Positions 7,139-63,818 are shown, counted from the whole stretch's first letter. The stretch: DNA of 63,818 nt, filler included, from Collodictyon triciliatum (GCA_043381765.1; 9 parts of 9 records of this genome joined end to end with filler, not necessarily neighbours in it); one strand, 5' to 3'. The notes: generated by a model from the sequence alone, not told the origin. Made by a program: numbers and translations.

Positions 7139-7238
7139 NNNNNNNNNNNNNNNNNNNNNNNNNNNNNNNNNNNNNNNNNNNNTTAATTAATTAANNNNNN
7201 NNNNNNNNNNNNNNNNNNNNNNNNNNNNNNNNNNNNNN
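7139..7238. other. Artificial scaffold linker (N-run, TTAATTAATTAA, N-run); repeated at about 14376-14475, 21612-21710, 28837-28936, 36063-36162, 43288-43387, 50515-50615, 57739-57838
   Basis: Identical six-frame-stop palindrome inside N runs at about 7.2-kb spacing. Genes are cut at each one. Confidence 0.98.
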
Positions 7239-15720: not shown

Positions 15721-18700
15721 AAAAAAAGGGAAAAAAAGGGAAAAAAGACACACACATACAAACAGCCAAAACTGAATTCGTTTATTGATCTCCTCGCATC
15801 TAATCAAGATTCGGTGGGACTTGTTCTTTGGTCAGCTCTTCTTCTATTCCCTATGGAGTTGCAACGGGACTATGCACCATCTCTGAACAGGTTTTTTTTT
15901 TTTTTGTCGTTTCTCTGGTGCATTTTTATCTAAAGAGCTGTCACATCTTTCTGCCAGCAGGCGTCATTCAGCACTTTATTTGTAATTCACGGAAGAATAT
16001 TTCAATTGGCGTTTTGTACAGGGAAGTGTGGCAACCACTGGGGAAGAAAGTATGAAAGGAGGTGGATATATCTCCATAGTCACGTCCAACAGCATAACAA
16101 TATTTGGCAAAATCAGTTCTGATGGGCAGTCTGCTCGATTGTCAAATTCGGCGATTGGTGGAGGCTCTGGCGGATGTGTTCGTATAATAGCAAATGTTTG
16201 TTTTCATATACAACTTGTTCTATACTTTCTTTCCGCTTCTTTTCGTGATAGGAAATTCAAGTGTAATGCTCAAACGTCGCCAGAGCAGGCCAAACTTTCT
16301 TTGCTTTTCCTCACTTCTTTTTATTTAATAAATGCTCCTTTACCCTCATCATGATTGAAACCAGCAAATACTTGGAAATGGTACTGTGAGCGCCATTGGG
16401 GGAAATGGAAGCACACCCAGAGTTGAATTGCTTGATGGTGGAGGTGGTGGGAGTGGAGGTCGCGTGATGGTACGTTTTCAATAGAGCAATCAATTCCTTC
16501 CTTTTCTATATATTTTAATTCTTTTATGTATATGAAGTTAAATGGCACTTTTAGATAGACTCACAAGCGAACCTCATAAAAATACACATTAAATTTAATA
16601 AACTACAATTTTTTTTGTTTCCACCAACATATTATTCGAACGGAATTCTCTACAATTTATCCATGGGACTTAATAGTCATTTGTCGTTGAGAAAAATAAG
16701 CGTTACTTAAAAAAATGATTGATAGATTTACAAAGCATCCAAAGATGGCCTCGTCAATTTTGACGTTTCTGGAGGTATCTCCATGTGCGAAACGAAAGGA
16801 AGCGGAGCAGCCGGAACCTTGTTTACAACGAGCACAAAGACACTTGAAGTACAAGCAGGATAATTAAAACTTGATCTATTTTTATTAAAAATAGAATTTG
16901 ATGCAGTCAATGACTTCAATTAATTATAATTTGCAAATAACTTTAATCACTATCCAGGTCAATAACAACGAGAAACCAAATCCTACGCTCACATACTATG
17001 GAGAAGATGCGCAAACTGTTTCGTCTCTTGTTGTCAAGTTGAGAGCGAAGATAGCATCTTCATTTAGAAACAATCAAATCAATACTTTGAATTCCATAGT
17101 TGTTTCAGACTCATCAGAGGTAATTTTAGCAGCAGATTTGCGATTTTACAATTAAATATGAAAGTCAAATTACAATATCTTCTTTGTATGGCTGGCTATT
17201 CGGAGTACAGATATCCCCTTTTTCCTGCCATTATATCAAAAGATTGGTCTCTTCTTTAGATTACGGGAACAGACTACGTTAGTTTACATTCAGATTCCAT
17301 ATCCATTCGGAAATCTAGCTCTGTAAGTTTCATTTCTATGATTTATGTGACTTCTTTCGATTCGATTCAAACCTTTTGTTTAATATATTTTTCCCTTAAT
17401 ATTTCATTAAATTCGCACTTATTAATTTCTCAATAAAAAAAAATAATATCCCAGATTGATTGCAATACAATATCAATTCATGGTAAAGTTTTTACACTGG
17501 ATCGGTCATCCTCGATCGAAGAGAAGAGTGTATTTATCTTTGCATCTGAGCGTGTTGAAATAAGCGGATATTTAAGAACTGAAATAAAATTTTACGTGAC
17601 TCCTTTGCAGGTATGGCTGAATTTTCTCGCAATTTACATCAAAACAAGTGCATAATTAGCTTTTACTTTTTTCCTCTCTAATTTGGTTAAGTGATTAAAA
17701 AAATATATAAGGAATGGTAATATGATTCCTCGTGTTTCTAGCCTTACAACTTGGTTGTTAATATCACTGCGAGTGGTCTATTGACTTCGACAAGCATGAT
17801 GTTGAACTCATCGTTTATCTGGGTCGATGGCCGCTTATCAAATCTCGGTACTTTCTGCCCTGTATCCTGTGACCAAAACACTTTACCCAAGGTAATTTTT
17901 TTCACTCTTCTCTAAATATTCATAGAGTATTTCATTTGGGAAGATTCAGCTGTAACCATTCTGTCTAAAATATGTTGCAAGTATATCTATGTAGAAAATG
18001 CGATGCTCTTAGACAACCACCTTACTCTTACATTAGGATTATGGAATGAACTTTAATGCGCAAAATTACATCTATGTTGGGAAAAAGGGCAGCATCATCA
18101 GCGGATATATGTTTATGGAATCAAGCGAAGTGGTAATAACGATAAGGCCAGATGAATTGAATTTTTATTTGAAATATTTGTATAATTATCGTTCCGTCAT
18201 AAAAACAATAAAGCAATATTTTTCTGTTTCGCTATGATTTTCTTCATTCGAAACCTTATCTTGGTAGCTGAATTATGGATATATATCCGGAAGTGGGACT
18301 GGATGCACGAGCGATAAAGTTTGTTGTGGATTCTATTTACATTTTATCAATAGGGTTTTAATTGTTTTTTGTTTTGTTTTTATTCTCTCGACTAATTGCG
18401 ATAAGGCTGTAATACTTGATACCACCCATCACTATTTTATCGTACTATCGTAGGGACCTGGAAGTGGAATGGGTAATTTTCAGTCTGCAGGTGGAGGCGG
18501 GGGACATGGCGGAGGTGGTGGATATGGCTCGAATGGTATTTTGCAGGCATATTCGTTTTGACATACCTTTTTTATTTTAATTACTACTGTGGCATTAGAG
18601 TATTTTTGGAAATAATCATGTAACTCCTCCGATTTTTTTTCTCATGACTTTTCGATATTTTTAAAGATTTATGCTTGCCCTTTAATCTATTTAAGGACCA

Positions 18701-21343
18701 GATGGATCTGTAAATGAAGGAGGGCACTCTTATGATTTTCCCGAAAATCCTATTTGCCCAGGTTTTTTTTTTATTTTGTATCCTCGTTGTGTTCTTGTCT
18801 ATTTGTTTGCCCTTAGGTTTTCACAATTTTACGTACTGTCATATTTTTGTGTGTTGAATTTGTATTTTTCTTTCCTTTTTTCACAAAAATATCAAGGAGA
18901 TGGATACCCATACAAATATTCGATATAACCGTGTTATATAAATAAAATTCAAATTCTACTTCAGGAAGTGGCGGTGGAAGTACTTCAAAATACTCTGGTG
19001 GCTCAGGCGGTGGAGTACTCATTATTAAAGCGCATAAGAGAATTGTGAATGACAAGTTGGTTCTCCTTACTACTCCGTATTTTCAACTTTTTTCTTTCAT
19101 TGTAAAGGTTGAAAGTTATATCATTTTTTTCTCGTTTGTAATCTTTAGCTTCCTCATCTCTGATGGTCGCCCTGGCGCTACAGGGGAACAACCTGGAGGT
19201 GGAGGCGCTGGCGGATCAATCCAACTGCATACCCCAATCATTCAAGTGCGTTTATTTTTTATACTTTTATTTCTCGTTTTTTTTTTGTTTTGCTTTCTGT
19301 ACATATGGAGAAAAAAAAACTTTAGGAGTAACATTATGCATTAAAAACTACATACAAATGCCAAAAGATGGCACATACTTATCTTGAATATTTGCTATAT
19401 GCTGGCATTTTCTACGTTTATTTACCAGGGTATTGGAAGCATTACTGCATCAGGCGGGCCTGGGGCATCAAATAGTGGCGGTGGTGGAAGTGGTGGTCGC
19501 ATCAGACTTTACCTGGTTGACGAGGCTATAAACTCTTCTGCAAAATCTGATGTAATAATTTGTTCCATTATGGCGGGACTCTTCTATGTTTGTTTGTTTG
19601 TTTGTTTATTTGTTTGTTTGTTTGTTTGTTTGTTTGTTTGTTTGTTTGTTTGTTTGTTTGTTTGTTTGTTTTTTATTCCCTATGGTTTTAACATCTTCAA
19701 ACCTTTACATCTCCGGTAGATGGACTTTAGCTTTTCTGCTGAAAAAATAATTGTAAATGGGGCATCTGGTGCTGGGAAAGGTGACGATGGCACTGTTTTT
19801 TCGTCAAGTTGTCAATCGGGATACTATGGATTATTTTGCCTTCCTTGTCCCATCGGGTAATTTTTCTTCGTCTTGTTTATTTTCTTCATATCCTCCTTAT
19901 CTTTTTCCTGTCTTTCCCAGTTTTCTTCTTTTTCTTCTTTTTCTTCTTCAAAGAGTTGAATATGGAGCATTATAAAACCAACTCCCAATCAGCCGGGCTA
20001 GATTTATTTTCTATCGCCGCTTTACAGTTTGTATTCACGGAAATGAATGATTAAATATTATCAGAACCTATAAAGCCACCAATGGGAGCGACGGTTGTGT
20101 TCCATGCAATAATGCACCGCGACACTCAAAGTATACAAAAGATGCTGTGTTTGATGCAAGTTGCCCTTATGAATGCAAAGGAGACCGGAAGTATCCAGAT
20201 TGCTGTAAGAGTACTGATAGTTCGGATTGATTTAAAACCATGCAATTATACGTAAAACTAATCCATAATCGCACACCTAGCAACAATCTTTGATAATTTT
20301 GTCGATGACGCTGGAGGAACAATCGTACTCCTCATCATTCTTTGGATTCTTTTTTCAGCTGGTTTCTCTTACGTCTCAAAATATGTAATTAATTTCATAT
20401 AACCCATTTCATACTATTAATTAAATACGGTTCATGATAATGATAAAGCTCATACAGTCCGCTACTCTTATATCCTCCCATTTTTCTTGATACATATATC
20501 GTTCGACTTTATTTCTTTGATAAATGTGACTTTGAGAAGTTGAACATGTTTAAATACATTACATATATAACTCGCATTATGAAAACATATACCGTAGATA
20601 CACACAAAGATTTCCACACACAAGAACATTGTTTCTCTGTGGCAGACTTGGCACCACATAGCCAGAGCGGGAGATGAGAATTGGGGCGAGGCCAATACAC
20701 CTTCAAAGTCCCAAGGACAATGTTTCTTTTCTCTTCTATCAAGGGGCCATTATATCCCGCCATTTGCTTGCCTAGTTTTTTTCCCCGATTATTCTTTACT
20801 TCACGAGTAACTCATCCTCCAGCAATACTTTCTTAATTTATTTTTTGCATTTTTATTGGGTATTTTACAGCTGCACTTAAAGAGGAATCGGGTGGCTTTA
20901 TTCGATATGGAGAGTACGATGAATCACTGGCGGAGGACAAACCGATGGGGCCTATGGATATCAAACTCCACATAACGCGACTCTACTTCCGTGAAAACAA
21001 CACATATAGCGCTCCATGGAGACTTCAAACTCTAGAAAATCACGAACTGAAGGTTTCGTTTTGAAGAAAATATATCAAGAATACATAGATATTTTCATTC
21101 TAATCTTACCACTTGTAATCACGATGTTGTGATTGATTGAACAGAGGAGTTTATTTTTCTTCTCTTATCGAATTACAAGTCCTTACTTGTTTCATCACAG
21201 GGCAAAAGGGTTATTAATGAAGACGAATATTCACGCTTTACCCACCTATGTAATGAGCATGCTGCATGGAGAACTTGGGAAGGGCTTGTATATTTTATGC
21301 TTCTTTTTTGCTACCCACTGGCAAATATATTTCAATCGTGGAG
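14796..21343 (+). CDS. Large membrane protein with Gly-rich GGGSGG repeats, Cys-rich (TNFR/ephrin-receptor-like) module and TM region; At5g11700/At4g32920-like family; 3'-truncated
   Basis: Signal peptide MKVKRSAAFELLFCLVLCALLFPQSSA. Repeated GGGSGGCV / GGGGGSGGRV / GGGAGGSI / GGGGSGGRI. CQSGYYGLFCLPCPSGTYK..CVPCNNAP..CPYEC. TM TIVLLIIFWILFSAGFSYV. HITRLYFRENNTYSAPWRL and AAWRTWEGLVYFMLLFCYPLA match recalled family motifs (HVHRMYFMGPNTFSEPWHL, YQWWEG..YPLA). Confidence 0.82.
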
Positions 21344-22217
21344 GTAACACCAATCGAAAACACTTTGCTCTTTAGTAATTTGGCTATTCCGGGTACACTG
21401 ATTCTTTGTTTTTGTATCTTTGTTTGTTTCTTTGTTTATTTGTTTCTTTGTTTGTTTCTTTGTTTCTTTGTTTCTTTGTTTCTTTGTTTCTTTGTTTCTT
21501 TGTTTCTTTGTTTCTTTGTTTCTTTGTTTCTTTGTTTCTTTGTTTCTTTGTTTCTTTGTTTCTTTGTTTCTTTGTTTCTTTGTTTCTTTGTTTCTTTGTT
21601 TCTTTGTTTCTNNNNNNNNNNNNNNNNNNNNNNNNNNNNNNNNNNNNNNNNNNNNTTAATTAATTAANNNNNNNNNNNNNNNNNNNNNNNNNNNNNNNNN
21701 NNNNNNNNNNNATACATACATACATACATACATACATACATACATACATACATACATACATACATACATACATACATACATACATACATACATACATACA
21801 TACATACATACATACATACATACATACAAATAATATTCATTGAATATTGTTAGATAATTGGGAAAAGAACTACGTGAATTTCTTAGCGTATATTGCAATA
21901 CCGTCTTTGTCCTAAATATAACATAATAGCGTGATAAAAAGTAAACAAAGGGCATATTTCGCCTGAATAAAGATAAATTCAAATTCAGCTGTTTTATTAG
22001 TTGATGAAATTTGAAGGAGACGGATGGGGCAGTTTGAAACCCCCTCTATCAATCGTTTTCTGCAAGGTCATTTGTATAAGAGTATCAATGTGATATTATC
22101 TAAAAAAAAAAGTCACAACTTTGAATCGAATGAAGGATTTTTTTCAAAGTTACAAAAAGTGGAGACCGATGAATGGTTATAATATGCGTTTCCCCATAGT
22201 TTTAGTAAATAATTGTT

Positions 22218-28836: not shown

Positions 28837-28936
28837 NNNNNNNNNNNNNNNNNNNNNNNNNNNNNNNNNNNNNNNNNNNNTTAATTAATTAANNNNNNNN
28901 NNNNNNNNNNNNNNNNNNNNNNNNNNNNNNNNNNNN

Positions 28937-33833: not shown

Positions 33834-35759
<1,926 letters not shown>

Positions 35760-36269
35760 TCAACAACCCTCGCAAATAGAATAGCACCTTGTAATAAATA
35801 TATGTAGAAAAACAAAACAAAACAAAACAAAACAAAACAAAACAAAACAAAACAAAACAAAACAAAACAAAACAAAACAAAACAAAACAAAAAACAAAAA
35901 CAAAAGACAAAAAGACGAAACAAAAACAAAAACAAAAACAAAAACAAAATAAAAAACAAAATAAAAAACAAAAAGACAAAAAAGACAAAAAGACGAAACA
36001 AAAACAAGACAAAAAGACGAAAAGACGAAAAGACAAAAAGACGAAAGTCAAAAACCAAACAANNNNNNNNNNNNNNNNNNNNNNNNNNNNNNNNNNNNNN
36101 NNNNNNTTAATTAATTAANNNNNNNNNNNNNNNNNNNNNNNNNNNNNNNNNNNNNNNNNNNNCCCTGAGTTGTCATGCTGTATTTGTCGAAAATATGATG
36201 TTAATAATATCATTGAAGAAAAATTTTATATACTTAGAATATATTAAGAGAAATAAATTGAAGGCTAAC

Positions 36270-39599: not shown

Positions 39600-42264
39600 T
39601 CACAGGTCGGAGACACTCTGGCCTTGGCGGGTGACCACGCAGAGCCTTCCGCTGGGACCGAAAGCCGCGCCACACAGCCCGCCAACCTCGCTTGTGGTTG
39701 CCAAGACGCCGTCCTGAGTGTAGACGGAGATGCGCTGGAGACTTGTGTCGGCTATCGCAAAGCCACCCTTTGAATCGCACGTGAGGGCTGCGCTGTCCTC
39801 GCGCGTCTTGTGCACGGCGATTTGCCGCAGAAAGCGGCCGTCCAGCGTGTGGACCATGACACAGTCGCTGCCCGTTGCCATGGCGTAAATCTCGCCCTTG
39901 GGGCTGATGCCCAGCGAATCGACGCGCCCAACAGGGTTTGCTGATGCCCTGTCTCCAATCAGCTGCACAAACCTGCCGTCCGGGGCGAACTTGTGGATCC
40001 GCTGGTTCGATGTGTCAGCGACGTAGATGTTGCCGTGTGCATCGCAGGCTACCGCGCGGGGAAGATTAAACTCGCCTTCGCCGACCCCGATCTGCCCAAT
40101 GGTACGCAGCTGCTCGCCGGCACAGTTGACCAGTTGTAGGCGGTTGGCCAGACGGTCAAGCACAGCCAGGGTGACTCCGTCTGCAGAGAATGCCAGGGCA
40201 CTCACCGACAGCACCTCTCCTCGCCCACTCCCGCGTTTGAGGATGGTTCTCTTAAGCACAAATGCCTTGGAAAACACCCTGATTCTCGCGTTGGTGGTGT
40301 CCCCCACATACATGTCGCCTGTCACTGGATGGACAGCTATGGGTGTGGCTGGTTGCTGGCAGTCCTCGGCTGGGTCGTGGCAGAAACCCCTGGATGCCTT
40401 ATATCCAATCGAGTCGATTATGTCTGGGCTGGCAGAGTCTTTGCTTCTCGACATTAATGAGGGTGTGAACGAGGACATGCTTTGCGTGACTGCGCTGATG
40501 GATGGCGCCTTTGGATTCGGGTGGTTTTGTCCGTGGGGAAGTTGTTGCGATTGTTGGGGCTGTGATTGAGGCTGGGGCTGTGATTGAGGCTGGGGCTGTG
40601 ATTGAGGCTGAGGCTGGGGCTGGGGCTGTCGATTCTTGGACAACTGGGGTTGGGTGTTTGATTTTACTCCAGTGGCGATGATGAATTGGTCGAAGCTAGT
40701 TCGTATGTTCTGGAGGTCTTGCTCTTTGGCGTGCAGATCGTTTTGAAGACAAAATATTGTCTGGTGCGCTTCATCGAGTCGACGCTGGAGGATGGTACTT
40801 TCTGTTCGAAAGAATTCCACGTCAAACTGCATGGACTTTTCGCGGATCAATACCTGCTCTGATGTAAGAAACGTTGGGAGTGGCTCCAAGAACCCTCGGC
40901 TAGGGTCCTTGAACTTTGGCACATCTCTTTGCAAATTGGACTCCAGGTAATCTCTGGCAGTAGGTAGCTGTGAAAGAGAGCGCTCCGTGAGAAAGTTGCT
41001 CACAGCATCAATACCAATCTGCAAGCCGTTGGCTAGCTGGCTATGGTAGGCAACCAAATCGTCGTTCTGTGCTTTGATATCCTGAAAAACGCTGGAGAAG
41101 TGATTGACAATCTAGAGACAGTAAGACCGATGATGTAATTTCATTTTGTTGTTTCGTTAATTAATTGCTCAATTATCTAATGACTAATTATTTTGTAAAC
41201 CTTTTCTTGGTATTCAGTCTCCATCTCAGCGATCGATTCTCTTAAAGCTGTGAAGTGTTCCTTTGCTCTTGATTGGACATCTTCCATGTACTCATAAGTC
41301 TAAAATTTTTTATTTTGATTATTTATTATTTTTTTTTAAAAAAAAAGAAGCTCTTCGACGCCCCGAAATATTAAATAAAATAAAAAATAGAACGATTGAT
41401 TAGTATGTTTATTCAATTTTCTTTCTTATTTTTTTTTCCGTACAGGGATAGGATAATGTGTGAATAAAAAAAAAAAAAAAAAAAAAAAAAAGAAGAGATG
41501 GCATATTTGCAAAAGGACGAAACCTTTGTGCGCGCTTGTGCGATGTCTTCTCTCGCTTTTTCAATTTCCTGGATTCTGGCAAGTGTGGTATGCTCCAAGA
41601 CGCCTAGCTTGTTGACAAGGCTCTTACAGCCCTCTTCAAAGGTGAGCAAGTCTTTCGTGACACCAGCAGCCTGGTTTTCCTTGGCACACTCAAGACACTG
41701 GAAGGGCTCCAGCTTGACGAGGCTACAGTAGTAGGTGAGCGGGGCGTTTGCATGCTTCGGACAAGAGTTGTCGATTTGGTTTGCAGAGACAATGAGATCG
41801 TCGAGCAGCGGCCTGTTTGCAGCGGAGCGGGTGAGCAGGAGGCTGGTAGCAGAAGCCAGGGGAAGAGCGGACAGAGAGGAGCAAAGGGAAAAGAAAAAGA
41901 AAAAGAAAAAGAAAAAGAAAAAGAAAAGAGAAAAGAAAAAGAGAAAAGAAAAAGAAAAAGAAAAAGACACGCACTCGCAGCGATGCTTCTTTGTGAACTT
42001 GCTCTTGGCGTGGTCTGCATAGCAGGTGTGGCAGAGCAGGCCGCAGAACTGGAGGCAGCGGTAGGAGGCGACGTTGCCGCACTTGCGGAGGGAGCAGGTG
42101 AGGGGGACGGCGCCGTCCAGGGTGTACTCGCGCAGCCACGAGCGGTACGGTTCGGGGGCGGCCTCGTCCAGCCAGTTGGGCCAGCGGGGGCTGTGGCCGG
42201 GCGGCGCGTCGGGCTGCCTCTTCCTTGCGGGGCCGGCCGGCGGATCGGCGGGGGCTGCGGCCAT
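39600..42264 (-). CDS. B-box / coiled-coil / NHL-repeat protein (RING-less TRIM-NHL-like), 4 exons
   Basis: ATG 42264. B-box-like C..C..YRCLQFCGLLCHTCYADH..H and CPKH..YYC..QCLEC; coiled coil; QP-rich linker; NHL repeats (MYVGDTTNARIRVF, GEGEFNLPRAVACDAHGNIYVADTSNQRIHKF). Confidence 0.88.
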
Positions 42265-42546
42265 GCGGCACGGTTCGGGGGCGTCCTGTCCTCTCTGTGT
42301 TTGCTTCGTCAGTCCTCCTCCCCTCTCCCACGCCCGCCCTCTGCTGCCCCTGGCTCGGAGGCCACGCCCCGTGTGTTCTGCCCGCCGCCTCCGCCCTGCT
42401 TGAGACGCCCAAGGCTCCCGCGGAAACGCCGTTGCAGAACGCGTTGGCCACAGCACAAACGTGGAAAATACGTCTGCCGCACGACACCACAGACAGAGGC
42501 CGAAGCGGTGGCAGAGGGCGAGACAGGAGCAGAGGCAGAGACGGAG

Positions 42547-43177
42547 ATGTTCAGACGGTTGTGGCGGCTCCAACAGGCGACGAGACATGGCGGGCGGGCA
42601 ACAGCAACAACAGCAGCAACAGCAACAGCAACAGCAACAACAACAGCAACTACAGCAACAGCAACTACAGCAGCAGCAACAGCAACAACAGCCGACGCGC
42701 GGGCGAACCTCGTGGGGCTGCGGCGGGCAGAGCTGCGTGCGGCGCTGGAGGCCAAGGGCGTGGAGGGCTTCCGCGCAGGCATCGTGTGGCACTGGGCGTA
42801 CCGGCACGGGGCGTCGGCGTTTGCGCAGATGAGGACGCTGTCCAAGGTAGTAGCAGCCGCCGCCCCGCCGTGCACACGCGCCGACCCGGCCTAACCGCCT
42901 GCCTCCCCCGCAGAAGGCCGCCTCCGCCCTCGACCGCTGCTTCCGCCTGGACTTCGGCGGCGTGGCTGCGCACCAGACGGCCGGCGACGGCACGGCAAAG
43001 CTGCTTGTCCGCTGCCCCGGCTCCCCGGCCGAGATCGAGACCGTCTTCATCCCCGACCGCCGCAGAGGCACCGTCTGCGTGTCCAGCCAGGTCGGCTGCA
43101 GCCTCGCCTGCTCCTTCTGCCACACCGGCACCCAGAAGTTTGTGCGCAACCTCACTGCCGCCGAAATCGTCTCTCAG
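42547..43177 (+). CDS. rlmN: RlmN-family radical-SAM RNA methyltransferase with probable mitochondrial presequence, 3'-truncated
   Basis: [17 protein letters not shown], Ala/Thr tract, [25 protein letters not shown], intron 42847-42913, then [36 protein letters not shown] (CxxxCxxC), [11 protein letters not shown]. Confidence 0.93.
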
Positions 43178-43429
43178 GTCCTCTTTTCTTTTCTCTCTTT
43201 TCTTTTCTCTCTTTTCTTTTCTCTCTTTTCTTTTCTCTCTTTTATCTTTCTCTCTTTTCTTTTCTCTCTTTTATCTTTCTCTCTTTTNNNNNNNNNNNNN
43301 NNNNNNNNNNNNNNNNNNNNNNNNNNNNNNNTTAATTAATTAANNNNNNNNNNNNNNNNNNNNNNNNNNNNNNNNNNNNNNNNNNNNAACAAGAACACAG
43401 GGATTTTCTTTATATTTGGTTATTTTGTA

Positions 43430-49703: not shown

Positions 49704-50615
49704 TGGATAAGAAAAACCAGGACAAATTTTTCAACTCTTAAATTTTGATTATTTATCAGGATGAACTCAAAAAATCAATTTATCATAGCACTTCGCGAAC
49801 TTTCTGAAAGGGGTCATCTTTCATTCCATTTCATCGTACAAGGAACTCTGGAGCTCTCATTTTTTTTGGCGATAAACAAGTCACACAGTAAGTTGACCAA
49901 GCCAATTCATAGCATCGAAAGGAAATTTATTTATCTCAAGGTTTCAAGTACCATGAATCTAATTTTTATATAATAAATAAATAAACTCATGATGAAAACT
50001 TCGAGGGCATTACAAAGAATAGTGCAATCTTTGGGCCAGATTGACCAAGATTCTGACAGTAAAAAAGTATGATTCTTGTCTAATTTTCCCATCTAATCCT
50101 TTCATAAGTGAAAAGCACGAAAAAATTTAAATTTATACGACAGAAAATTTGTCACATGTTAGATATTCAACAGTAGAAAAACCAAATACGCACATTTTAA
50201 GTACATGTATGTATAAAGCCTAATTTTTAGCAGATTATCTATCAAACTTCATTCTTAATTTAGGTCTCGTTTTGATAAATGGTTCAATCTGACAACTTCA
50301 TGGAATAGCTGAAGAATCGCATTATTTCATTCAATATATCATATTAAGAATTAATTATTCATCTTCAATCGGAGATTGTTCAAACTAAAGTCATGGGCAA
50401 AACTCAGATACAGTTGCAAAATGAGAGGGACAAAAGACAAAATCCGTGGGAAAGGGAACTGTTTCGATCTACTACTTGGAGGAGGGGGGAGGGGTGGTGG
50501 ATCGGCGGCTCCTAGNNNNNNNNNNNNNNNNNNNNNNNNNNNNNNNNNNNNNNNNNNNNTTAATTAATTAANNNNNNNNNNNNNNNNNNNNNNNNNNNNN
50601 NNNNNNNNNNNNNNN

Positions 50616-52525: not shown

Positions 52526-55500
52526 ATGAATTTTGAGGACAACCCAGTAAGTAATTTTGTTTTGTTTACATAATTGTCTCTGAAAATAAAATAATAAGTT
52601 TATGTATGAAGCTGCGCTTAAGACATTGAAAAGAGATTGTGGAGCCGTAGTTGTGATTCAATCGAACCAGTCTTCAGAATCGAACCCAACCAATTTACCA
52701 AATAATTTTATACATGTTCATCTGATGAAACAAACTAATGCTAGTATAATGAAATAAAATTAGGCCGATTCGCCGTTCTTCAGGTCCGACGTGGTTTCTA
52801 GTTCTTCGGATGTCCCGTCACTTGCACCAAATATTCCGGCTCATGATGAAAATCAACATGTCCTTTTTTCAAATCCGCAGAATACACCTAAAGACCTTTT
52901 TTCAACCCCACCAATTCCAGAAGCAACCCAAACAAACGAGCATGTTTCACATGCAGAGCCCAGCTTAAAAACGGTTCAAATCCTGTGTCAGGAAGGGAAA
53001 GAACAGAATGGAAATGAAAGGAACACAAAGACGAGTGAAATATCAAAAGAACTATTTTTGGTTTTAAATCCTGCACAGAATGAAACTACAGAGGAAAAGG
53101 ATATGAGTAAGTCACAAGTGGATACGCCTTCTAACGAGACCTACACAGATATTGTTTCTGATGGATATTTAAGAATGCAAGAATCAAACACAGTCCCTTT
53201 TAATGATCCAGTGACGCATGAAACCATTGAGCTGGATGAAACCTCAAACAATCATTCATTTTCAGGTCATTTGGCGTTTACGAATCAAGAGAGAATCCAA
53301 GATGAGGTTCAGACTACATCCACTTTTGATACAAGTGCAGATTTGGTTGATTCAAGAACTGCTGTAGAGGTGCCGCATCCATACGAGTCATATATCACTC
53401 ACGAATCTAAATCAGGTTCATCTCATATGAGACTGTTTAGGATATTTAATCTAATTTTATTTTATTGAACATGCTTCATCTTCAGTGATTTTTTATATAT
53501 ATAAATAATATAATATACTTTATCTTAAATATATGACTTATTTTAGATTTGGGTGTTGCTGCTCATGAGGTACCCTCTGCTTCTGTTCCCGAGGTTCCAG
53601 TAAATATATTTGTGGATGAATCATGTTTGTCCGACCAAGAGTTTGTTATTATACCGACGTCAGGTGTGCAATCTAGTCTGACGTCACCCGTCGAATTGCA
53701 GTCTCCAGAATTCTCCTCTGAGTCCCTGAGTAAACCAACTGGTCAAGGGACACCTATATTTAGTCCTATTGTGCAACCATCAACAGCGAATGTCCAAGAT
53801 ATATTACCTACTATTCCAGCAGGCCTGTTTGGAGATTCCTCTGATTTTGAAGCACCCTTATTGACAACGCCTTTTACACAGGAGGTATTGTCACATTTAC
53901 CACTCAACCTCTTCAGCTCTGTGGAGAATGAAGCGGCAACAAGCAGCCTTTTCTCCAACGAGCTATCACCGTTGAATATTGGAGCCCTTTCTCCCACAAA
54001 AAGTGAAAAATCAATAACCACCCCACGAGTCGTTGTCCCTGTTATTTCATCGAACTTTATACCATTCGGCGAAACCTCTGATGATTCATTCAATTTCATC
54101 AAACCAAGTATCGATATTTCTTCGACTCAAAGCTTTGTTCATGTTTCCCCATCAAAAGCCGTTATCTCAGAATTCGTCCCGTCATTTTCTAGCGAACCGT
54201 TTGTAGAGGCCGAAGATATGAAATTTTTCAGTTCATCACTGGTATCTAATGAAGTGGCGAACATCGTGATTACTCCAAAAGCCATTCAGCCGGTAATAGC
54301 AAGTGCCATTGAGTTTGGAGATGTCGAAGATGATGACTTTTTTATTTCAACACCCCAAGTGACAAATCTTTCTTCGTCTGCGTTGAATGCAGATAGTAAG
54401 ATAATTGCTCCATTCTCTCCAGCACCAGTTATCCAAGTGACCGAAGCCATCCCATTCTTTGAATCTACAGATGATTCGTATGAGTTCCCTTCCTTTGACG
54501 ATCCGATGCCGACTGCAAATTATTCTGTGAATAAAGCAAAGTCAGTCGATGTCACTGCCAATGCAGAGGGTTGCACTCGTGGCACTCTGGTCTCAAATAC
54601 TTCAGACCACTTCACAGCCATATCATATGCAAACCGAAGCAAAGAAAATCACACACTCCCGTTCTACCAGTCCTTGCCCCCTTCTGATGAGCATGCATCT
54701 CTCTTTCATGGTCAAACAACACGATACATTAGTACAGATAATACAATCCATCGAGATCTGGCAACAGAAATAACTGAAGAAACAAATAGCTACAGGGGCG
54801 CTCCAGCAAATATTCCGACTGGGATTCAAACGACTGAAGTTACTGCATTTACATTTGCAGGGGAAGCTGAAGACGAATTTTTCTCGAAGCTTTCAGAGTC
54901 TACAACCGATTTTGGACAAGCTGAAGCTAATATTTACACACAGCCGCTATCAACCACCGTAGCAAGTGAGCATCCCATACCACCCCCAATTACATATTAT
55001 GCTCCACCACCAACAAGTCCAGTAAAGACTGAAAAGGCAGTCCCACCTGCATACTTCCAACCACCTCCCTTAGCAAGCGTGCAAGAAACAAAATACCACT
55101 ACAACGCTCCAACAAATATTCCGATTGAGAGTCAGACGACTGAAGTTACTGCATTTACATTTGCAGGGGAAGCTGAAGACGAATTTTTCTCGAAGCTTTC
55201 AGATTCTACAACCGATTTTGGACAAGCTGAAGCTAATATTTACACACAGCCTCTGTCAACCACTGTAGCAAGTGAGCATCCCATACCACCCCCGATTACA
55301 TATTATGCTCCACCAAGAAGTCCAGTAAAGACTGAAAAGGCAGTCCCACCTGCATACTTCCAACCACCTCCCTTAGCAAGCGTGCAAGAAACAAAATACC
55401 ACTACAATGCTCCAACAAATATTCCGACTGGGATTCAAACAACCGGAGACACTGCATTTACTTTCACAGGAGAAACTGAAGACGAATTTTTCTCGAAAAT

Positions 55501-57620
55501 TGCAACCCCAGGCATGGTCCAAACACCACACAGACACCAAGAAGAAGATTTCCAGGAGCGCAGTGTGTCTTTCGAAGAAATTACGCATCATCCGGATTTC
55601 ACTGTAGGCACAAATCAGGGTGGCAACAACCAGTTCAGTCACACTTCAGACAAATCATACAACATCGCTGGATACGGAACTTCTGGCTTCGAAGAGGCGA
55701 CGTTCAATACCTCATCTCACAGCACCTTTGGAATGGTCGCTACAGACATCCCTGCTTCAGTAAAGGACTTTTACAGAACTGCAGATTTAAGGGACGCGAC
55801 TTATAGCAATACATATTCCTCTGATTTTGCAGTGCTGCCAGAAGCTAGTGATACTAATTTTGCGACATTTAGTATTCCTCCAGCATTTAATGATTTTGAG
55901 GGACAAGGTCAAAATGGATTCTCAGAATTTTCTCAATATAACACATATTCTGAGACACAGCCGACAGGTTTTGCGGCGGGCTATGCTCCTATGTATCAGC
56001 AACCGAATGAACGTTCGTATAGCATTTTCCAACCTGGGCATACTTCGACTTATCTACAAGAAGTTAATCATTATGTCGGTCAAACTATGGACTATACAAA
56101 CATTCGAAATGATTGGAAGGAGCCACATGCAGCTTGTAATCAATGATTTTAGCTTTTCCTTTGCTCATATTTTTGATTTCACGTTATTGAAATTTTGCGC
56201 TCCTAATTTGTCTTTTATATGTAAACCATGAGGAATTGCGTATCACCAGAGTAATTAAAATATTTGCAGTTTGCTTCGGATTCGGTGGCAGATTGCTGAC
56301 TATATTCCCTTCTCATATTATCAACCCTTTAAATGGAGAGGTTTCCATTTGCATATTGATGTTCTCCTTAAAACATGCAAATACATTATATTTCATTTAA
56401 GCTTTCATCTGAAGCACCTCCTGTCGTTTTGTTTAGTTTACTTTAGTTTTTTATATCAATTTTCCTTTGAAAAAGAAGAGGCACTTTTTCCTTTAATATT
56501 TTTTAGATTTTTTTTTTATTGTCGCCCACTCATCATTTCATGTTTTTATCATTACTAGGTCCACCGACAGCCCAGTTTAGCGACTATGAGCTCGGTAGAA
56601 TTTATAACAAGAATGACATATGCTTTTGTAAAATTTAGCCTCCTTCGTGCTAAAGATAAATTTTCGTGGTTGGTGCTTGGGTATGATTTGCTTAGATTCG
56701 CACGCTTCTCACCAACGACCCTGAGTCCAAGGAGCTGAGTCGGTATCCTGGGCCTTTATGTGTGCGTAGCACATTGAGAGAAAAAAACTGACATATTCTT
56801 TCTTTTTCTTTTATATGTATATCATCGAATCGTAATGAAGGCAATCTCTTGATATTTTTTTCTGGGATTTACCTGATTTATATATGTTATTAGAAAGAGA
56901 GCAAAGAGAACATTGAAAGACTGGTTAAGTCAAACATCGAGGAGATTGATAAGAGTGAAGATTATCTCGCCGCTGGTAGCGATTCTCTTTCTAATCATTT
57001 GCTTTTCTTGATTACTCATTCATCGTGTATTCTCAAAGAGTAAAGTAATATACCCACAAGAAACCCCTTCTCATATTTTCCCCCTCTGTTTGTTTAGATT
57101 CACAGAGACTATTGTGGGAAATAATGCACACTTTTTATTTGTCTGGAAGTAAGTTGGTCGCTAACTTGATTAGACTTATGATTTTTATTTGGAATTTATT
57201 TGTTTATTGACATAGAAAAAAAGAATATTGTTATTTTATAAATAATATCACCATAGAACATATTTAAAATATAATAATAATAATTGTAATAAATGTAGGT
57301 TCAAAGCTTCTTGATGTGAAACCTCCAGCTCAAGTTTATGGAAAATTACAGGTCCTTTCCAGAAAAAAAAGAAGCAACACTTCAGTTTTATCATATCGAC
57401 TTAATGTACTGCAAAATTGGCGATGGCACTTCGCTAAAATAGAACATGGTTTTTAATTAGGCATTGCTACAAGAAAGCATTTCCAGCGAAACGTTGGTCA
57501 ATTCAACCCCACATATCTTCGCCACAGGATACATGGAAGCGAATTTACCTAAGCAAGAGATGGAGAGACATGTGCTTCGGATTCAGGAATTGTTGTCGGC
57601 TGGCAAGAAGAACGAGGCAT
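52526..57620 (+). CDS. SEC16: COPII scaffold Sec16, long disordered N-terminus, 3'-truncated
   Basis: Low-complexity S/T/P/E region, then spliced EPHAAFCFGFGGRLLTIFP, YPGPL, RLLWEIM and RIQELLSAGKKNE, which are Sec16 mid/central domain hallmarks. Confidence 0.85.
54800..55500 (+). repeat. Coding tandem duplication, about 2.3 copies of a 303-306 nt unit in Sec16
   Basis: Units start at 54800, 55106 and 55409 (APxNIP..AFTFAGEAEDEFFSKL..QETKYHYN). Confidence 0.95.
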
Positions 57621-57964
57621 GTCTCTTTCTCTTTCTCTTTCTCTTTCTCTTTCTCTTTCTCTTTCTCTTTCTCTTTCTCTTTCTCTTTCTCTTTCTCTTT
57701 CTCTTTCTCTTTCTCTTTCTCTTTCTCTTTCTCTTTTTNNNNNNNNNNNNNNNNNNNNNNNNNNNNNNNNNNNNNNNNNNNNTTAATTAATTAANNNNNN
57801 NNNNNNNNNNNNNNNNNNNNNNNNNNNNNNNNNNNNNNTTATGTTTATGTTTATGTTTATGTTTATGTTTATGTTTATGTTTATGTTTATGTTTATGTTT
57901 ATGTTTATGTTTATGTTTATGTTTATGTTTATGTTTATTCTTTAATTAAGTTATCATTTAATAG

Positions 57965-59325
57965 ACACGAAAAAGCCCTGGAATACCACCACAAATCACT
58001 TGAAATTAAGCTGAAAGTATTTGGAGAAATACACCCAAATGTCGCCAATTCGTATGGAAATGTTGGAATAGTTTATCGCCAACTTGGAAAGTATGTTTTA
58101 TTTGACTACGCATTATGTTTATGGCTTAATTAACTCATTATTTAATAGACATGAGGAAGCTCTAGAATACTACCACAAATCACTAGAAATTCGACTCAAA
58201 TTGTATGGGGAATTGCACCCTGATGTTGCCAATTCATACATGGTAATCGGAATCGTTTACAAGAATATTGGAAAGTATATTTATTTGACTATGTATTGTT
58301 GTTTATCCCTTCATTAACTTATTATTTAATAGGCCAGAACTAGCACTGAATTTACACCTCAAATCACTTGAAATTCGACTGAGAGTTTTTGGAGAGATAC
58401 ATCCTGATGTTGCAAAGTCCTATGGAAATATTGGAATTGTTTATCATCAACTTGGAAAGTATATTTTATTTGATTATGAATTGTATTTTTTCATTCGTTG
58501 TCTTATCATTTCAACAGGTATGAAAAAGCTCTTGAAAACTACCACAAAGACGTTCAAATTACACTGAAAGTGTTTGGAGAAATGCACCCTGATGTTGCCG
58601 CTTCATATAATAATATTGGAATGGTTTACAAGAATCTTGGAAAGTATATTTTATTTGATTGTGCATGTGTGTTTAATATTTTCATGAAATAATTATTTAA
58701 TAGGTATAACGATGCCCTGGAATACTACCACAAATCACTTGAAATTCAACTGAAAGTGTTTGGAGAGATACACCCTGATATTGCTGGGTCGTACAATAAT
58801 ATGGGAAATGTTTACAAGAATATTGGAAAGTATGCTTGATTTGATTATATATGAATACCAGTTCATTAACTTATTATTGATTAGCCATGACAAAGCCCTG
58901 GAATACTATCACAAATCACTTCGAATTAAATTGAAAGTGTTTGGAGAGACACACCCCGATATTGCTGGGTCGTACAATAATATGGGAAATATTTACAAAA
59001 ATATTGGAAAGTATTTTCTGTACTATTATCACATTTTATTTTCTCCTTAATTGACTGATTATTAAATAGACATGAAAAAGCCCTGGAATACTATCAAAAA
59101 TCAATTGAAATCCGAATGGAAGTGCATAGAGAACTGCACCCTGATGTTGGGAATACATACTTCAATGTTGGCAATCTACTTATGAGCCAGGAGAAATACT
59201 ATGAAGCCTTCGACATGTACCAAAAAGCCAACACGATCTTCAAGACCGCCTATGGCGCAGACCATCCTCATGCAAAGCTTTCAGAAAAGCGAATGATGAG
59301 TGTACAGATGAAACTGACCCAATAA
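57965..59325 (+). CDS. TPR (42-aa, kinesin-light-chain/TPR_12-type) repeat protein, 3' part; one repeat per exon
   Basis: Exons 57965-58090, 58149-58274, 58333-58458, 58518-58643, 58704-58829, 58885-59010 (126 nt each) and 59070-59325. Consensus HEKALEYYHKSLEIxLKVFGExHPDVAxSYxNxGxVYKNxGK. Confidence 0.95.
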
Positions 59326-59783
59326 GTGGCTCGTCTGTTATCCACCCCACCCATCTAAACAACCAACCCCATCCCCATAATTATTTCCACAAAAACAAGT
59401 AAAAGTAAGCATTATCACGATGGCTGTCAAACTGAATGAATGCAGACCATTGCTAGCTTGTTTGCAGAGGCTGGATGAAAAGAACAAAAAATTTTACTTA
59501 ACCTTACCAGCAAATGCCGATAAGCGTGACACATCTCCTGTTTGTTTGAGAATCGACCTTGAATATGAAACGCAGCTTGAAAGAATAGTGGCGTGTTGAT
59601 TATCAATCTGCTGCTGAGACTATATACTTCCAGTTGATTTTTCATAAATTTTTTTTACTTGGTTAAAAGTCGCAATGTCAGCTTCATGAACACAATTTCT
59701 TTTTCTTTTATTTTTTTCTTTTTTTACGTATAATGGTGTGCTGTAACGCTACTTGCATCGCTTTGTGTGCCTTCATCCTGTCT

Positions 59784-59992
59784 TTTTTTTTTTTTATTGT
59801 TCCTTTCAATTTGCGCGACATAGTAAAGGAATTGGCTTTGGTTCTCCAACCATCGTTTGCATGGAAGCTACTTGGTCACTGAATGGCCAAAGAAGTAGGC
59901 AGTAATCAGGTCTTAAATCCTTTGTATTGGCCTGTAGCCTGAGTTTCGTGCTTATATGAGAGAGGAAAGGTGAGATTTTATCTCTTGGTTTT
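59784..59992 (-). mobile_element. Diverged third copy of the retrotransposon 3' end including the last ORF2 codons
   Basis: Reverse complement reads NQEIKSHLSSLI* (cf. DKEIKPRLVSLM*), then GCACGAAACTCAGGCTACAGGCC..CCTGATTAC..CTACTT..CCAAGTAG, then an A-rich tail. Confidence 0.8.
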
Positions 59993-61295
59993 TTTTATTC
60001 ATGGGAGATTTATTCTATACCAGGTTTCTATACATGCTTTGCTTCATGTGTATGTATCCCTGGGAATTAAGCATGCTGGTCTAATCTCAGTTTGTGGTGC
60101 ACAGCCAGCTTTATATCCTTCGCAGGTATCGGTGTTCAGTGATTCATTATATCCAACAGCACATATATTTGGTGGCATGCCTCATCGAGAGGTAAAGCTG
60201 TTCATTTATTTGAAAATTATTTGCATCCCTGCATATGTGTTTCTCTGTCTTTTACGAGTAATTTCTTTTCTCTCTATGTCACCCTCGCTATTTATATTTC
60301 TTCTTATTTATTTGACTTTTTTCTTTTATTTTTGTTTACTAATCACAATATCTGCACTCGCAAGAGCAAAGTTAACTACTTGTCTTCCTGACTGGGTTTC
60401 TTCCACAGCTCACACAGTTGTCTCCTCACAAACCTTTGCCAAAAACTAATGTACTATACTTAATCCCCCAGAATCATATGTCATTTGAAATATCTCATCA
60501 AAATGTGAATAACATTCTGATAATGCATGAGAGATTGGTTTTCTTGCACAAGTTCTTTATGCTAAATAGATTATTTGGTGAAGTGCAAGTCTTGATGCTC
60601 TATTTGAACGGCAATATCGAGGCTGTCCTCTACCCATTTGCCTCTATTTTTTTATTTATTTATTTTTTTTGCTTGGAACAGAAACAGATTTTTTTTTTAA
60701 TATTCGATCAGAGCAAGCATCACTTTCTTTCCTGATAATTGTGTATTAATATGAGATGTAAAGTGGAACGAATTCCCAGAAAAAAATAACTGTACATTCT
60801 CATTATCGTAATTGTGTCCGTAAGGATTGCGAATAAATACTGATTTTTTTACATTATTAAATTTGTCCCTCTATAATTTAGTGTGCATATGTCTTCATTT
60901 TATGTATATTTTTTTTTTCATCGTCGTGTTTCCCCTTTTTACTACCATATGTATTGAGCATTCAGCTATGATTGTCACAGATGATTACTTTAACCTCGTC
61001 GTGCTTTTTTAGATGGCTTCTGGTGAGTTAGTCTCTTTCTAATTATTGTCTTGCCTGATAACCTTCTTTTATCGCCTTCCACCACGATTTGGCTCCTTTT
61101 TTTTCATATTCATACCTTTCATACCTGTTAAAATAAGGCCTTACATAATCTAACAATTAAGCAAAATATAGTAAATGAATCTTTGATAAATATAGAAGCT
61201 ACAAGCTGTTCCCTATATGATGACAATCGCTACACCTTTCATGTCATTCTCTATCTTTTTTTCTTAACAAAAAATAATAAATATGGATACATAAT

Positions 61296-61391
61296 ACATA
61301 CATACATACATACATACATACATACATACATACATACATACATACATACATACATACATACATACATACATACATACATACATACATACAC

Positions 61392-61442
<51 letters not shown>

Positions 61443-61456
61443 GAGATAGATGATAG
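61296..61456 (+). repeat. Compound (TACA)n/(GATA)n microsatellite
   Basis: Tandem tetranucleotides. (TACA)n also opens the scaffolds at 14476 and 21711. Confidence 0.95.
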
Positions 61457-63818
61457 ACAATGGATATAGGTTATTTTTCATAATATTTCAATCTTTATTT
61501 TCATTTTTTACATGTTTTTACATTCAAATTTTATATATGAATGAATTAAGTAAATTTTCACCGGGCGTGAGTCCTGTTCGTTGCCCAGCAAGAGGTTGTC
61601 AGCTTGTGTACTCAAATTTAAAAAAAAAAAGATTGGTAAAGAAAACCATTCACCTTATCGGTTCTACCTTTAAGAGAATACAGTTGTGCTCTACGATGAT
61701 TCGTGTTTAAAGTCAAGACTAACAGCATATGCAATTTAACACAGTATTTCAAAAAATGAGGATATTGAAAGAAAAAGCGGAATGCTTTATTTATTAAAAA
61801 TATTCGAATAAAAAATTATGCATAAAAAGATGCTATGAAGTGAACCTTTCCTATCTGCCTAATAATCATACGAATAGTCGACTAGGGCATATACCTTCTC
61901 ACGATATCATCAGACTTGGCATTAAACCTAAACAAAACAAAACAATTGACTTATGACTATATACCTGGCATTTAGGACATATGTATAAAAGGAGAAAAGG
62001 TTATGCCTCTTCTATTGCGTCTAATACAATCTATTGAAGTGTTTCTCAATCCACCCATATCATTTCTTATATCCCCCACTTATAACTCAAATAACCAAGA
62101 AAAGTATTCCACTATTTTTTTGATTTGTTTTTCTTGTCATATGCCTATAACTTTTAATACACAGCCAACCGGAGGAAGCAAAACGAAAAAAAAAAGTTAC
62201 GTTCGTGCGATTCCTGCTCATCAATTAATGATAAAAAGACTGGTCAAGTGTGTTTTGCTTGTGTCGAGAATACTCATCGCGACTCTTCTTTTCGAGTTTA
62301 TGTTGATTAATAAAGGCTTTTCTGTCGATCTGCTTCGGCCTTTATGTTCTCGTCTGGGTGGTATTGAAGCTGAACGCCGCTGACTTGATTGACCGCATAT
62401 CATTTGTCATATATAATTGTACAGAAGATATTCTCCTACCACGGCGGACTGGCAATAAAGACAACTCTATGGATTGACCTTGCCTATTGTTTCCTCCGCA
62501 CGACACAACACCAAACACAAAACAATCGTGATTAGACAAAGGATTCGTATGTATATATATGTATCCTTTTTTTGCTTTTAATGACCTGCATATTGTGTTT
62601 TGATTGTGTTTTGATTGTTTGTTTGTTTTTTTATACTATTAGATGATTAAATATGAGTATTATAGCTTTTCAGACATGATGTAATATCTCGACATATTCC
62701 TCCTATTAACCATGTCACTATCGTATATTCACAAATATGATAATTATAGAGGTGTACCATTCACCGATCATTGATACCAGAGAAGGCTGGAGTAAAACAC
62801 ATTACCTAGCATGTTACAAACTGCCGCCCGCCGCTGCTCTTACAATTATGTAACGGCATCGCATAAGGATATATATCTGTGATATACCCCTAGTCGGCTA
62901 CATCTGTGAGCATATTATTGGGATATCTTAATAGATTAATTTTCAAATAAAAAGGACATTTTTGTTTATGGAAACAATTTCATTCTGCTGAATAATTATA
63001 TTCCACAGTCGCTCTTTTAAAACATGTAATTAAGTGAGCACAACTGCTCGCAGTGAAGCTCAAATAAACTGAGGTAGTTGGCCTAGCATGTTTGACTTTC
63101 ACCAAAGATTTTGGTATTTTCAAGTGGTACTATTCACGACAATCATTCTCTCATTCAATATTGTCGACTTAAGCGTAAGTCTATTTTGGATGAATAAGGC
63201 GATAGCAATTATTTCTTAAAGTTTAATCATGTCCCTCATCATTCAAGTATTGATGCGTATTTGTTATGTTCTGGTATGTGCATTAGAATATGGCCAAATG
63301 AATAGATTTACCCTAGATAAAGTGTAAATATGTTGAGCAAACTAAGTTATTTTTTACCTTATAATCAAACAGCAGTAATTAAACGAATAAATACCATGGT
63401 GGAGCACAAAGAAATCGAAAGATTAAGCAAGACAAAAATACCAAATTATGTATTCTAGTAAAAATAAAAAAACATAAAATGCATGGATCATTTAAACATA
63501 GACATAAAAAAATCTTGTCTGCAACATAAAATACCCACTGATAATAGCAATAAGACATTTCCATTGCCGTCAGAATACTAACGAGTCATACTTGCTCAAG
63601 CATAAATATATCAGGGCCAAATACTACAATAAAAAAATCATCAAAAATATTTATCCGCACTGCATGAACGTTTTCATTCTCTAATCTAGACATTTTGCTT
63701 TTTGAAGCTTAAAAACATCTCTCTTTTTTCTTTCTTTTTTTTTTTTTTTTTTTTTTATTTCTATTATTTTTTTTTTTTTAAAAAATTTTTTTTTACCCTT
63801 TTTTCCTTTCGGACAAAA

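Follow-up and report, generated by a model that had tools for sequence, protein, structure and literature searches.

A run of consecutive exons of one identical length, each carrying one period of a TPR repeat, raises two questions: how such an array was built, and whether it diversifies the recognition domain of a receptor. The run studied here lies near the end of a 63,818-nt stretch of DNA from Collodictyon triciliatum (GCA_043381765.1), referred to throughout as the window. The window is composed of nine unrelated contigs joined by linkers of the format N44-TTAATTAATTAA-N44, which appear as eight pairs of 44-N runs approximately 7.2 kb apart and leave nine pieces of 7123-7138 nt, the last one cut by the window end. 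A 230-N gap at 2041-2270 is separate from these linkers. Microsatellites are abundant on all of the contigs, and several pieces end in one. The linkers are located as follows.

7139-7238: first linker, N44-TTAATTAATTAA-N44
14376-14475: second linker, same format
21612-21711: third linker, same format
28837-28936: fourth linker, same format
36063-36162: fifth linker, same format
43288-43387: sixth linker, same format
50516-50615: seventh linker, same format
57739-57838: eighth linker, same format

The TPR gene is on the last piece (57839-63818), which opens with a (TTATGT)16.7 microsatellite, and the piece before it closes with (TCTCTT)19. As the pieces are separate contigs, no physical link is known between the TPR gene and the DNA upstream of 57739. 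The preceding contig was considered as the source of the missing 5′ part of the gene and rejected, since the window is made up of distinct contigs that differ little in length; Pfam found no family in the terminal open frames of that contig. It carries two long open frames of 234 and 869 residues (52764-56146, plus strand) that are rich in Ser, Thr and Pro and probably disordered; within their product a stretch of about 100 residues is repeated two to three times, and Pfam found no family for either frame. The following features make up the TPR gene.

57839-57964, plus strand: 3′ part of intron 0, cut by the contig start, recognised by its microsatellite and by alignment of its tail with introns 1-6
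57839-57938: (TTATGT)16.7 microsatellite in intron 0 (Tandem Repeats Finder)
57942-57964: match of intron 0 to the 3′ intron motif (motif search)
57965-58090, plus strand: TPR exon 1, 126 nt, phase 2-2 (Pfam TPR_12, 36 bits, cut-off 30.1)
58091-58148, plus strand: intron 1, 58 nt, GT..AG
58149-58274, plus strand: TPR exon 2, 126 nt
58275-58332, plus strand: intron 2, 58 nt
58333-58458, plus strand: TPR exon 3, 126 nt
58459-58517, plus strand: intron 3, 59 nt
58518-58643, plus strand: TPR exon 4, 126 nt
58644-58703, plus strand: intron 4, 60 nt, a multiple of 3, with an in-frame TAA on reading the sequence
58704-58829, plus strand: TPR exon 5, 126 nt (Pfam TPR_10, 34.3 bits, cut-off 27.5)
58830-58884, plus strand: intron 5, 55 nt
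58885-59010, plus strand: TPR exon 6, 126 nt, 89% identical to exon 5
59011-59069, plus strand: intron 6, 59 nt
59070-59325, plus strand: last exon, 256 nt, with stop codon TAA at 59323-59325 (Pfam TPR_12, 63.3 bits, cut-off 30.1)
59326-59471, plus strand: probable 3′ UTR, minimum extent, from a metatranscriptome contig

Tandem Repeats Finder reported this region as a single array at 57929-59160, with a period of 184, 6.7 copies, 73% matches and a score of 1006. Each of the six 126-nt exons is preceded by AG and ends in GGAAA|GTA. The predicted introns are all in phase 2, and the codon that they split is AA|A or AA|G (Lys) in five cases and AA|C (Asn) in one. When joined, the exons (all seven intact) form one open frame of 336 codons that closes at the TAA at 59323-59325. 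Within the last exon the first 126 nt form a seventh, diverged unit, with 58-66% nucleotide identity to the other exons, and are followed by one last pair of helices and the tail of the protein at its C-terminus. Judged from the sequence and the list of open reading frames, retention of an intron would lead to a frameshift or a stop. As the length of each unit is a multiple of three and its phase is 2-2, the gain, loss or skipping of a unit would be neutral to the frame.

The introns proved to be as much a part of the repeat as the exons. Their mean pairwise identity is 0.71, compared with 0.61 ± 0.009 (maximum 0.635) in a control of 200 shuffles in which intron interiors were permuted and the splice ends held fixed. 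A motif from the 5′ end of the introns, searched with up to three mismatches, matched six sites in the window where 0.6 were expected, four of these sites falling in the array, and a 3′ motif matched five sites, every one in the array and one of them in the truncated upstream intron, against 0.0 expected. The introns are thus homologous beyond chance, confirming that exon and intron were duplicated together, as a unit of 181-186 nt. The 3′ motif in the truncated intron further indicates that the array extends 5′ of the contig and, as the contig start falls within this homologous intron, that the N-terminus of the protein is missing. The microsatellite that breaks the assembly here is an expansion of a TTATGT motif that is also present in intron 1.

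Pfam and structure searches, run with single exons and with their alignment, identified the product as 42-residue TPRs of the kinesin light chain/NPHP3 type. The cut-offs of TPR_12 (PF13424) or TPR_10 (PF13374) were exceeded by the last exon (63.3 bits), exon 1 (36 bits) and exon 5 (34.3 bits), and the seven units align without gaps, with nine invariant columns and 44-83% residue identity to exon 5. In the 34-residue Pfam model of a TPR, residues 1-14 of an exon fall on positions 17-30 and residues 27-41 on positions 1-15, and comparison with the designed consensus TPR 7obi gives the order helix B, an 8-residue insert, a loop and helix A of the following repeat. The intron therefore falls in the turn between helices A and B, and an exon encodes helix B, the linker and the following helix A, so that removal or addition of a unit would leave the solenoid continuous. 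The fragment holds seven complete TPRs preceded by an orphan helix B, which implies an eighth TPR and a protein with at least eight. Among natural solved structures the nearest are kinesin light chain TPRs (7ai4, E 3.5e-13; 3nf1, 6e-13). In repeats 1-6, positions 29, 32, 36 and 39 are among those occupied by three or four different residues; they equate to helix-A positions 2, 5, 9 and 12 of the consensus TPR (7obi). These helix-A positions face the concave ligand-binding groove of TPRs, so that most of the variation among the repeats is at groove-facing positions, a pattern generic to TPR proteins.

Much of what the sequence-only reading had described is borne out by these results, and all the numbers in its observation hold. 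Six consecutive 126-nt exons that split the same codon are present at 57965-59010, each ending in GGAAA|GTA; the introns between them are 55-60 nt long (58, 58, 59, 60, 55 and 59 nt) and resemble one another; the period of 184, the intron homology and the motif matches all agree with a duplicated unit of exon plus intron of about 184 nt; since each unit has a length divisible by three and symmetric phase 2-2, an exon could be skipped, swapped or duplicated without a frameshift; and the N-terminus does lie beyond the scaffold break, the contig beginning at 57839 inside the upstream intron. Its description of one exon per repeat needs amendment, in that an exon is one 42-residue period and is not one structural TPR, its boundaries being in the turn between helices A and B.

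The divergence of the units shows how the array may have grown. Nucleotide identity between exon pairs ranges from 0.58 to 0.89 and is highest for exons 5 and 6 (0.89), followed by exons 1 and 3 (0.78) and exons 2 and 4 (0.76); the resemblance of exon 1 to exon 3 and of exon 2 to exon 4 suggests that two units were probably copied together in a single step. Pairwise NG86 estimates, made from seven short paralogous units, gave a dS of 0.18 for exons 5 and 6 and of 0.39-1.97 for the other pairs, a dN/dS of 0.12-0.94 over the 21 exon pairs, and means for exons 1-6 of 0.265 (dN) and 0.710 (dS). With dS mostly between 0.4 and 2, the array is old. Exon and intron similarities do not run in parallel: exons 5 and 6 are alike at 0.89, yet their flanking introns are alike only at 0.63-0.67, and introns 1 and 2 are alike at 0.83, yet the exons around them only at 0.66-0.70. 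In a third-by-third comparison the nearest neighbour of an exon also changed along its length. Simple duplication of units followed by neutral drift is insufficient to account for the mismatch between exons and introns, which needs conversion or recombination within the array; these contrasts, noisy and drawn from short segments, point to some such exchange among the units.

We therefore regard it as highly probable that the locus is the 3′ part of a eukaryotic TPR-solenoid gene that grew by tandem duplication of an exon plus its intron and whose repeats have since been under purifying selection. An ancestral single repeat would have gained an intron, in phase 2, at the turn that joins helices A and B, and the 184-nt unit so formed would have been duplicated in tandem by unequal crossing-over or replication slippage, probably with one step in which two units were copied together (giving the pairs 1/3 and 2/4). 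The frame neutrality of the units explains how the array could expand. A later homogenisation would have affected exons 5 and 6 only, and the repeats would have diverged since, with purifying selection acting to preserve the TPR scaffold. The C-terminal domain of the protein is predicted to be a solenoid of at least eight 42-residue TPRs acting as a scaffold for protein-protein interaction.

The relatives of the repeats bear on the origin of the intron. Searched with a profile of the seven units, a library of representative proteins returned 35,354 proteins at E ≤ 0.001. The best nine of the 35,354 by per-repeat score comprised two TPR-CHAT proteins, two with P-loop NTPase domains (one with AAA_16, the other with DUF4062 and AAA_22) and five with TPRs only. 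The repeat type is thus too widespread for the missing N-terminus to be inferred from the repeats. A search of named proteins with the last exon gave two matches among six candidates, and one protein with similar repeats (P0004) carries NB-ARC and NPHP3_N domains in precomputed Pfam annotation. The same exon found four distant matches (33-40% identity) in a scan of prokaryote genomes, and a protein atlas returned generic TPR clusters only. A metagenome scan yielded at least 77 loci with similar TPR repeats at 49-71% identity. None of the 77 loci has a period near 184 nt among the matches listed, nearly all having a period of 126 nt and hence being intronless; the most similar among the matches listed reach 71% over 38-41 residues and have the 42-residue period. 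Two of the loci (L001 and L004) look bacterial, with dense long open reading frames and with CHAT domains and T9SS sorting domains adjacent. Such bacterial-looking TPR_12 arrays, of TPR-CHAT and TPR-only kinds, share the 42-residue period and are the most similar among the matches listed; they differ in being continuous, intronless frames with a 126-nt period, with CHAT at the C-terminus where it is present. The absence of a period near 184 nt from the 77 listed loci makes a single origin of the intron likely, and the design of one intron per repeat is likely to be derived in this lineage, best explained by one gain followed by duplication of the unit.

The architecture of the locus is of a kind that has already been described, in other repeat families and in one other TPR family. 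In Tetrahymena, thousands of LRR genes consist of arrays of exons of exactly 90 bp with more than 98% of introns in phase 2, and young arrays have introns of about 257 bp that are associated with a retrotransposon; in the consulted parts of their paper the authors state that such uniformity was known to them from no other eukaryote (Xiong et al., 2019; PMC6564038). The marks of a uniform array in that account, namely three or more equal exons, phase-2 introns and a unit of exon plus intron, are all found in the present locus; the 90-bp LRR exons are not, the exons here being 126 nt and encoding TPRs. As far as that account goes, both cases have exons of exact length and one period, phase-2 introns and an exon-plus-intron unit that is detectable at the nucleotide level, and in both the pattern is read as a clonal origin followed by tandem expansion; the difference is between 90-bp LRR exons in thousands of genes there and 126-nt TPR exons, in old units at one locus, here.

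The closer counterpart is in Ectocarpus siliculosus, in which 13 of 24 NB-ARC genes have a TPR domain made of exons of 42 aa (126 nt), with inactivated TPR exons in introns, and for which exon shuffling was proposed (Zambounis et al., 2012; PMC3341825, in the sections consulted). The sequence-only reading had cited this precedent, and correctly so. The likeness, so far as those sections describe the algal genes, extends to the 42-residue GK-x-x-EA type of TPR and to frame-neutral, consecutive 126-nt exons, of which the present locus has six, plus a seventh unit in the last exon; the printed Ectocarpus motif begins with GKYxEA, which corresponds to the start of helix B, so that the register looks similar. 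By the same account the Ectocarpus genes form a family with NB-ARC domains and with introns that bear pseudo-exons, whereas here the introns of 55-60 nt are empty of inactivated or misplaced TPR exons and one locus is visible, in its 3′ part. If the printed motif marks the exon ends (Q|GKY), the Ectocarpus intron lies about 5 nt upstream of the position found here, where the Lys codon of the Gly-Lys pair is interrupted behind its second base, and this would indicate independent origins. In the open literature that we searched, no design of one TPR period per exon came to light outside brown algae, and a search for 126-bp or 126-nt exons returned nothing on TPRs.

In a third system, the brown-algal ROCO genes, the LRR exons are 72 bp long and in phase 2, and both alternative transcripts and sites under positive selection were reported, as set out in the consulted parts of Teng et al. 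(2024; PMC11378527), where alternative splicing of NB-ARC-TPR genes is cited as the subject of Teng et al. (2023, Plant J). The present array resembles the ROCO genes, as described there, in having one repeat per exon, phase 2 and frame-neutral units; it differs in repeat type, and the alternative transcripts and selected sites reported there are features of the ROCO genes, which have LRRs. In what these sources report, the Ectocarpus, Tetrahymena and ROCO genes became candidates for diversification through the size of their families, pseudo-exons, paralogues that differ from one another, splice variants and sites under selection; the data from the present locus show none of these.

Environmental reads were used to look at the locus in other samples. 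Thirteen sequencing runs matched (shares 0.05-0.09), four of which were examined in detail, and partial matches of 33-45 nt with unlike flanks, possibly from paralogues or bacterial TPRs, were left uncounted. In four studies, metagenome runs from freshwater and lakes contain parts of the TPR contig with few errors or none. The intervals 58822-59098 and 59151-59458 are each matched without error by 151-nt contigs of independent lake runs, and the locus is therefore real. In two lake metagenomes (X2 and X4) exon 6 is followed by intron 6 and then by exon 7, as in the window; X2 also includes the end of exon 5, and X4 differs from the window at six sites, four synonymous and two non-synonymous. 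A freshwater metatranscriptome contributed one 240-nt contig over 59232-59471 with one mismatch, by itself no proof of transcription. No splice joints were seen in the four runs, the sole contig from an RNA library lying within the last exon and its 3′ flank.

The same reads bear on whether the TPR contig belongs to another eukaryote in the sample, such as prey or a contaminant, in which case the anatomy would be unaffected and the taxonomic framing wrong. We consider this unlikely. The window is, to be sure, made of nine separate contigs of about 7.13 kb, and the sole taxonomic anchor found in it is one gene on a different contig, a GDP-L-fucose synthase at 33837-35660 (minus strand) with at least seven exons and introns of roughly 50-190 nt. 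The best matches of this gene are two Diphylleia rotans EukProt transcripts, and against the full-length one (P0171) it is 67-98% identical per tblastn segment (83-98% in the central segments); the next named matches are stramenopiles at 78-83% over one exon. The assembly thus probably derives from a diphyllatean (CRuMs) flagellate distinct from that D. rotans strain. The TPR introns have 22% GC, compared with about 34% for those of the fucose synthase gene, and no recognisable gene was found on the TPR contig besides the TPR gene. On the other side, the GC3 of the TPR gene (0.36) falls within the 0.30-0.64 spanned by the window's other frames, richness in microsatellites is common to all contigs, and the contig turns up again in metagenomes from freshwater and lakes, where Diphyllatea live according to the consulted part of PMC11603278. 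The at least 4.5 kb 3′ of the TPR gene (59326-63818) is AT-rich (33% GC) and includes a compound (ATAC)n(GATA)n microsatellite at 61286-61457.

More doubtful still is the proposal that the cassette is the variable recognition domain of NLR- or STAND-like receptors, diversified by exon shuffling between paralogues, by alternative skipping of symmetric exons or by both, as was proposed for the Ectocarpus NB-ARC-TPR genes; we give it only a small chance. Exon size (126 nt, 42 aa) and TPR type agree with the Ectocarpus genes, all the units are frame-neutral, STAND-type NTPase domains occur on some proteins with similar repeats (NB-ARC and NPHP3_N on P0004), and two of the nine best per-repeat matches scanned have P-loop NTPase domains. 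The shifting nearest neighbours and the discord between exons and introns are compatible with recombination among units. A contig from run X2 agrees with 45 nt spanning the boundary of exon 3 and intron 3 (58433-58477), with three mismatches, and then continues as unlike sequence; this match could be a paralogous exon-intron unit from the same or a related organism. Against these points, none of the 21 exon pairs reaches a dN/dS of 1, and a dS mostly of 0.4-2 argues against a recent burst. The locus has no inactivated or reverse-strand TPR exons, its introns being too short for any, and tblastn over the whole window (E < 1e-3) found no TPR match outside 57942-59322 or on the minus strand, and hence no second array within the 63.8 kb. 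Exon order is unchanged in two other samples, which show four synonymous and two non-synonymous differences only. An NTPase-type N-terminus is not implied either, since two of the nine best matches are TPR-CHAT proteins and five have no other domain. The diversifying recognition system that the sequence-only reading had suggested thus finds no support here, with no dN/dS above 1, an old dS, empty introns, a sole array in the window and the same order in the lakes; such evidence as there is, though scant, leans the other way.

An extension of this proposal would have a deep-branching freshwater protist of CRuMs or diphyllatean-like descent arrive, independently of the brown-algal NB-ARC-TPR genes, at the same 126-nt TPR cassette with one period per exon, serving as the expandable, alternatively spliced recognition arm of a STAND-type receptor family. 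This has a slimmer chance again; if true, modular exon-intron repeat cassettes would be a convergent path to receptor diversity in unicellular eukaryotes. That the gene is instead a housekeeping TPR protein with incidentally one intron per repeat, such as an orthologue of kinesin light chain, which has six TPRs after an N-terminal heptad coiled coil, is very improbable, for although kinesin light chains (3nf1, 7ai4, 3edt) share the 42-residue TPR type and provide the best natural solved-structure matches, their repeats are more differentiated than the at least eight, more uniform ones here, the fragment alone has seven complete TPRs and an implied eighth, the repeat identity of 44-83% is what a young or consensus-like array would show, whereas repeats of a conserved orthologue would have differentiated long ago, the matches are limited to profile positions 10-41 with a modest 47-52 bits for whole chains, and bacterial-looking intronless arrays are at least as similar (up to 71% among the matches listed).

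Taken as a TPR-solenoid gene grown by duplication of exon and intron together, the locus illustrates how a repeat domain can grow in an intron-bearing genome, a captured intron being copied along with the repeat; the outcome would be a run of symmetric exons able to expand or contract with the frame kept. As a second occurrence of this design in TPRs within the literature searched, probably independent and in a distant lineage, it is of modest comparative interest. Its import would be greater if the gene belonged to a family with NTPase or death-fold domains and exon skipping, to which the present data give no pointers.

Some observations were made elsewhere in the window. Rfam found no RNA family in it. 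A 503-residue open frame at 39603-41111 (minus strand, GC3 0.64) encodes an NHL-repeat or SGL-type beta-propeller with distant relatives only (24-43% identity), the named ones being annotated as bacterial-type lactonases; it adjoins a GC-rich stretch of low complexity at 41400-43350 in which several frames are open on both strands. On another contig, three plus-strand frames (15986-16351, 18946-19341 and 19345-19716) have in common a glycine-rich motif, a Gly/Ser run followed by a short hydrophobic, strand-like segment, and these frames may be repeated exons of another modular gene.
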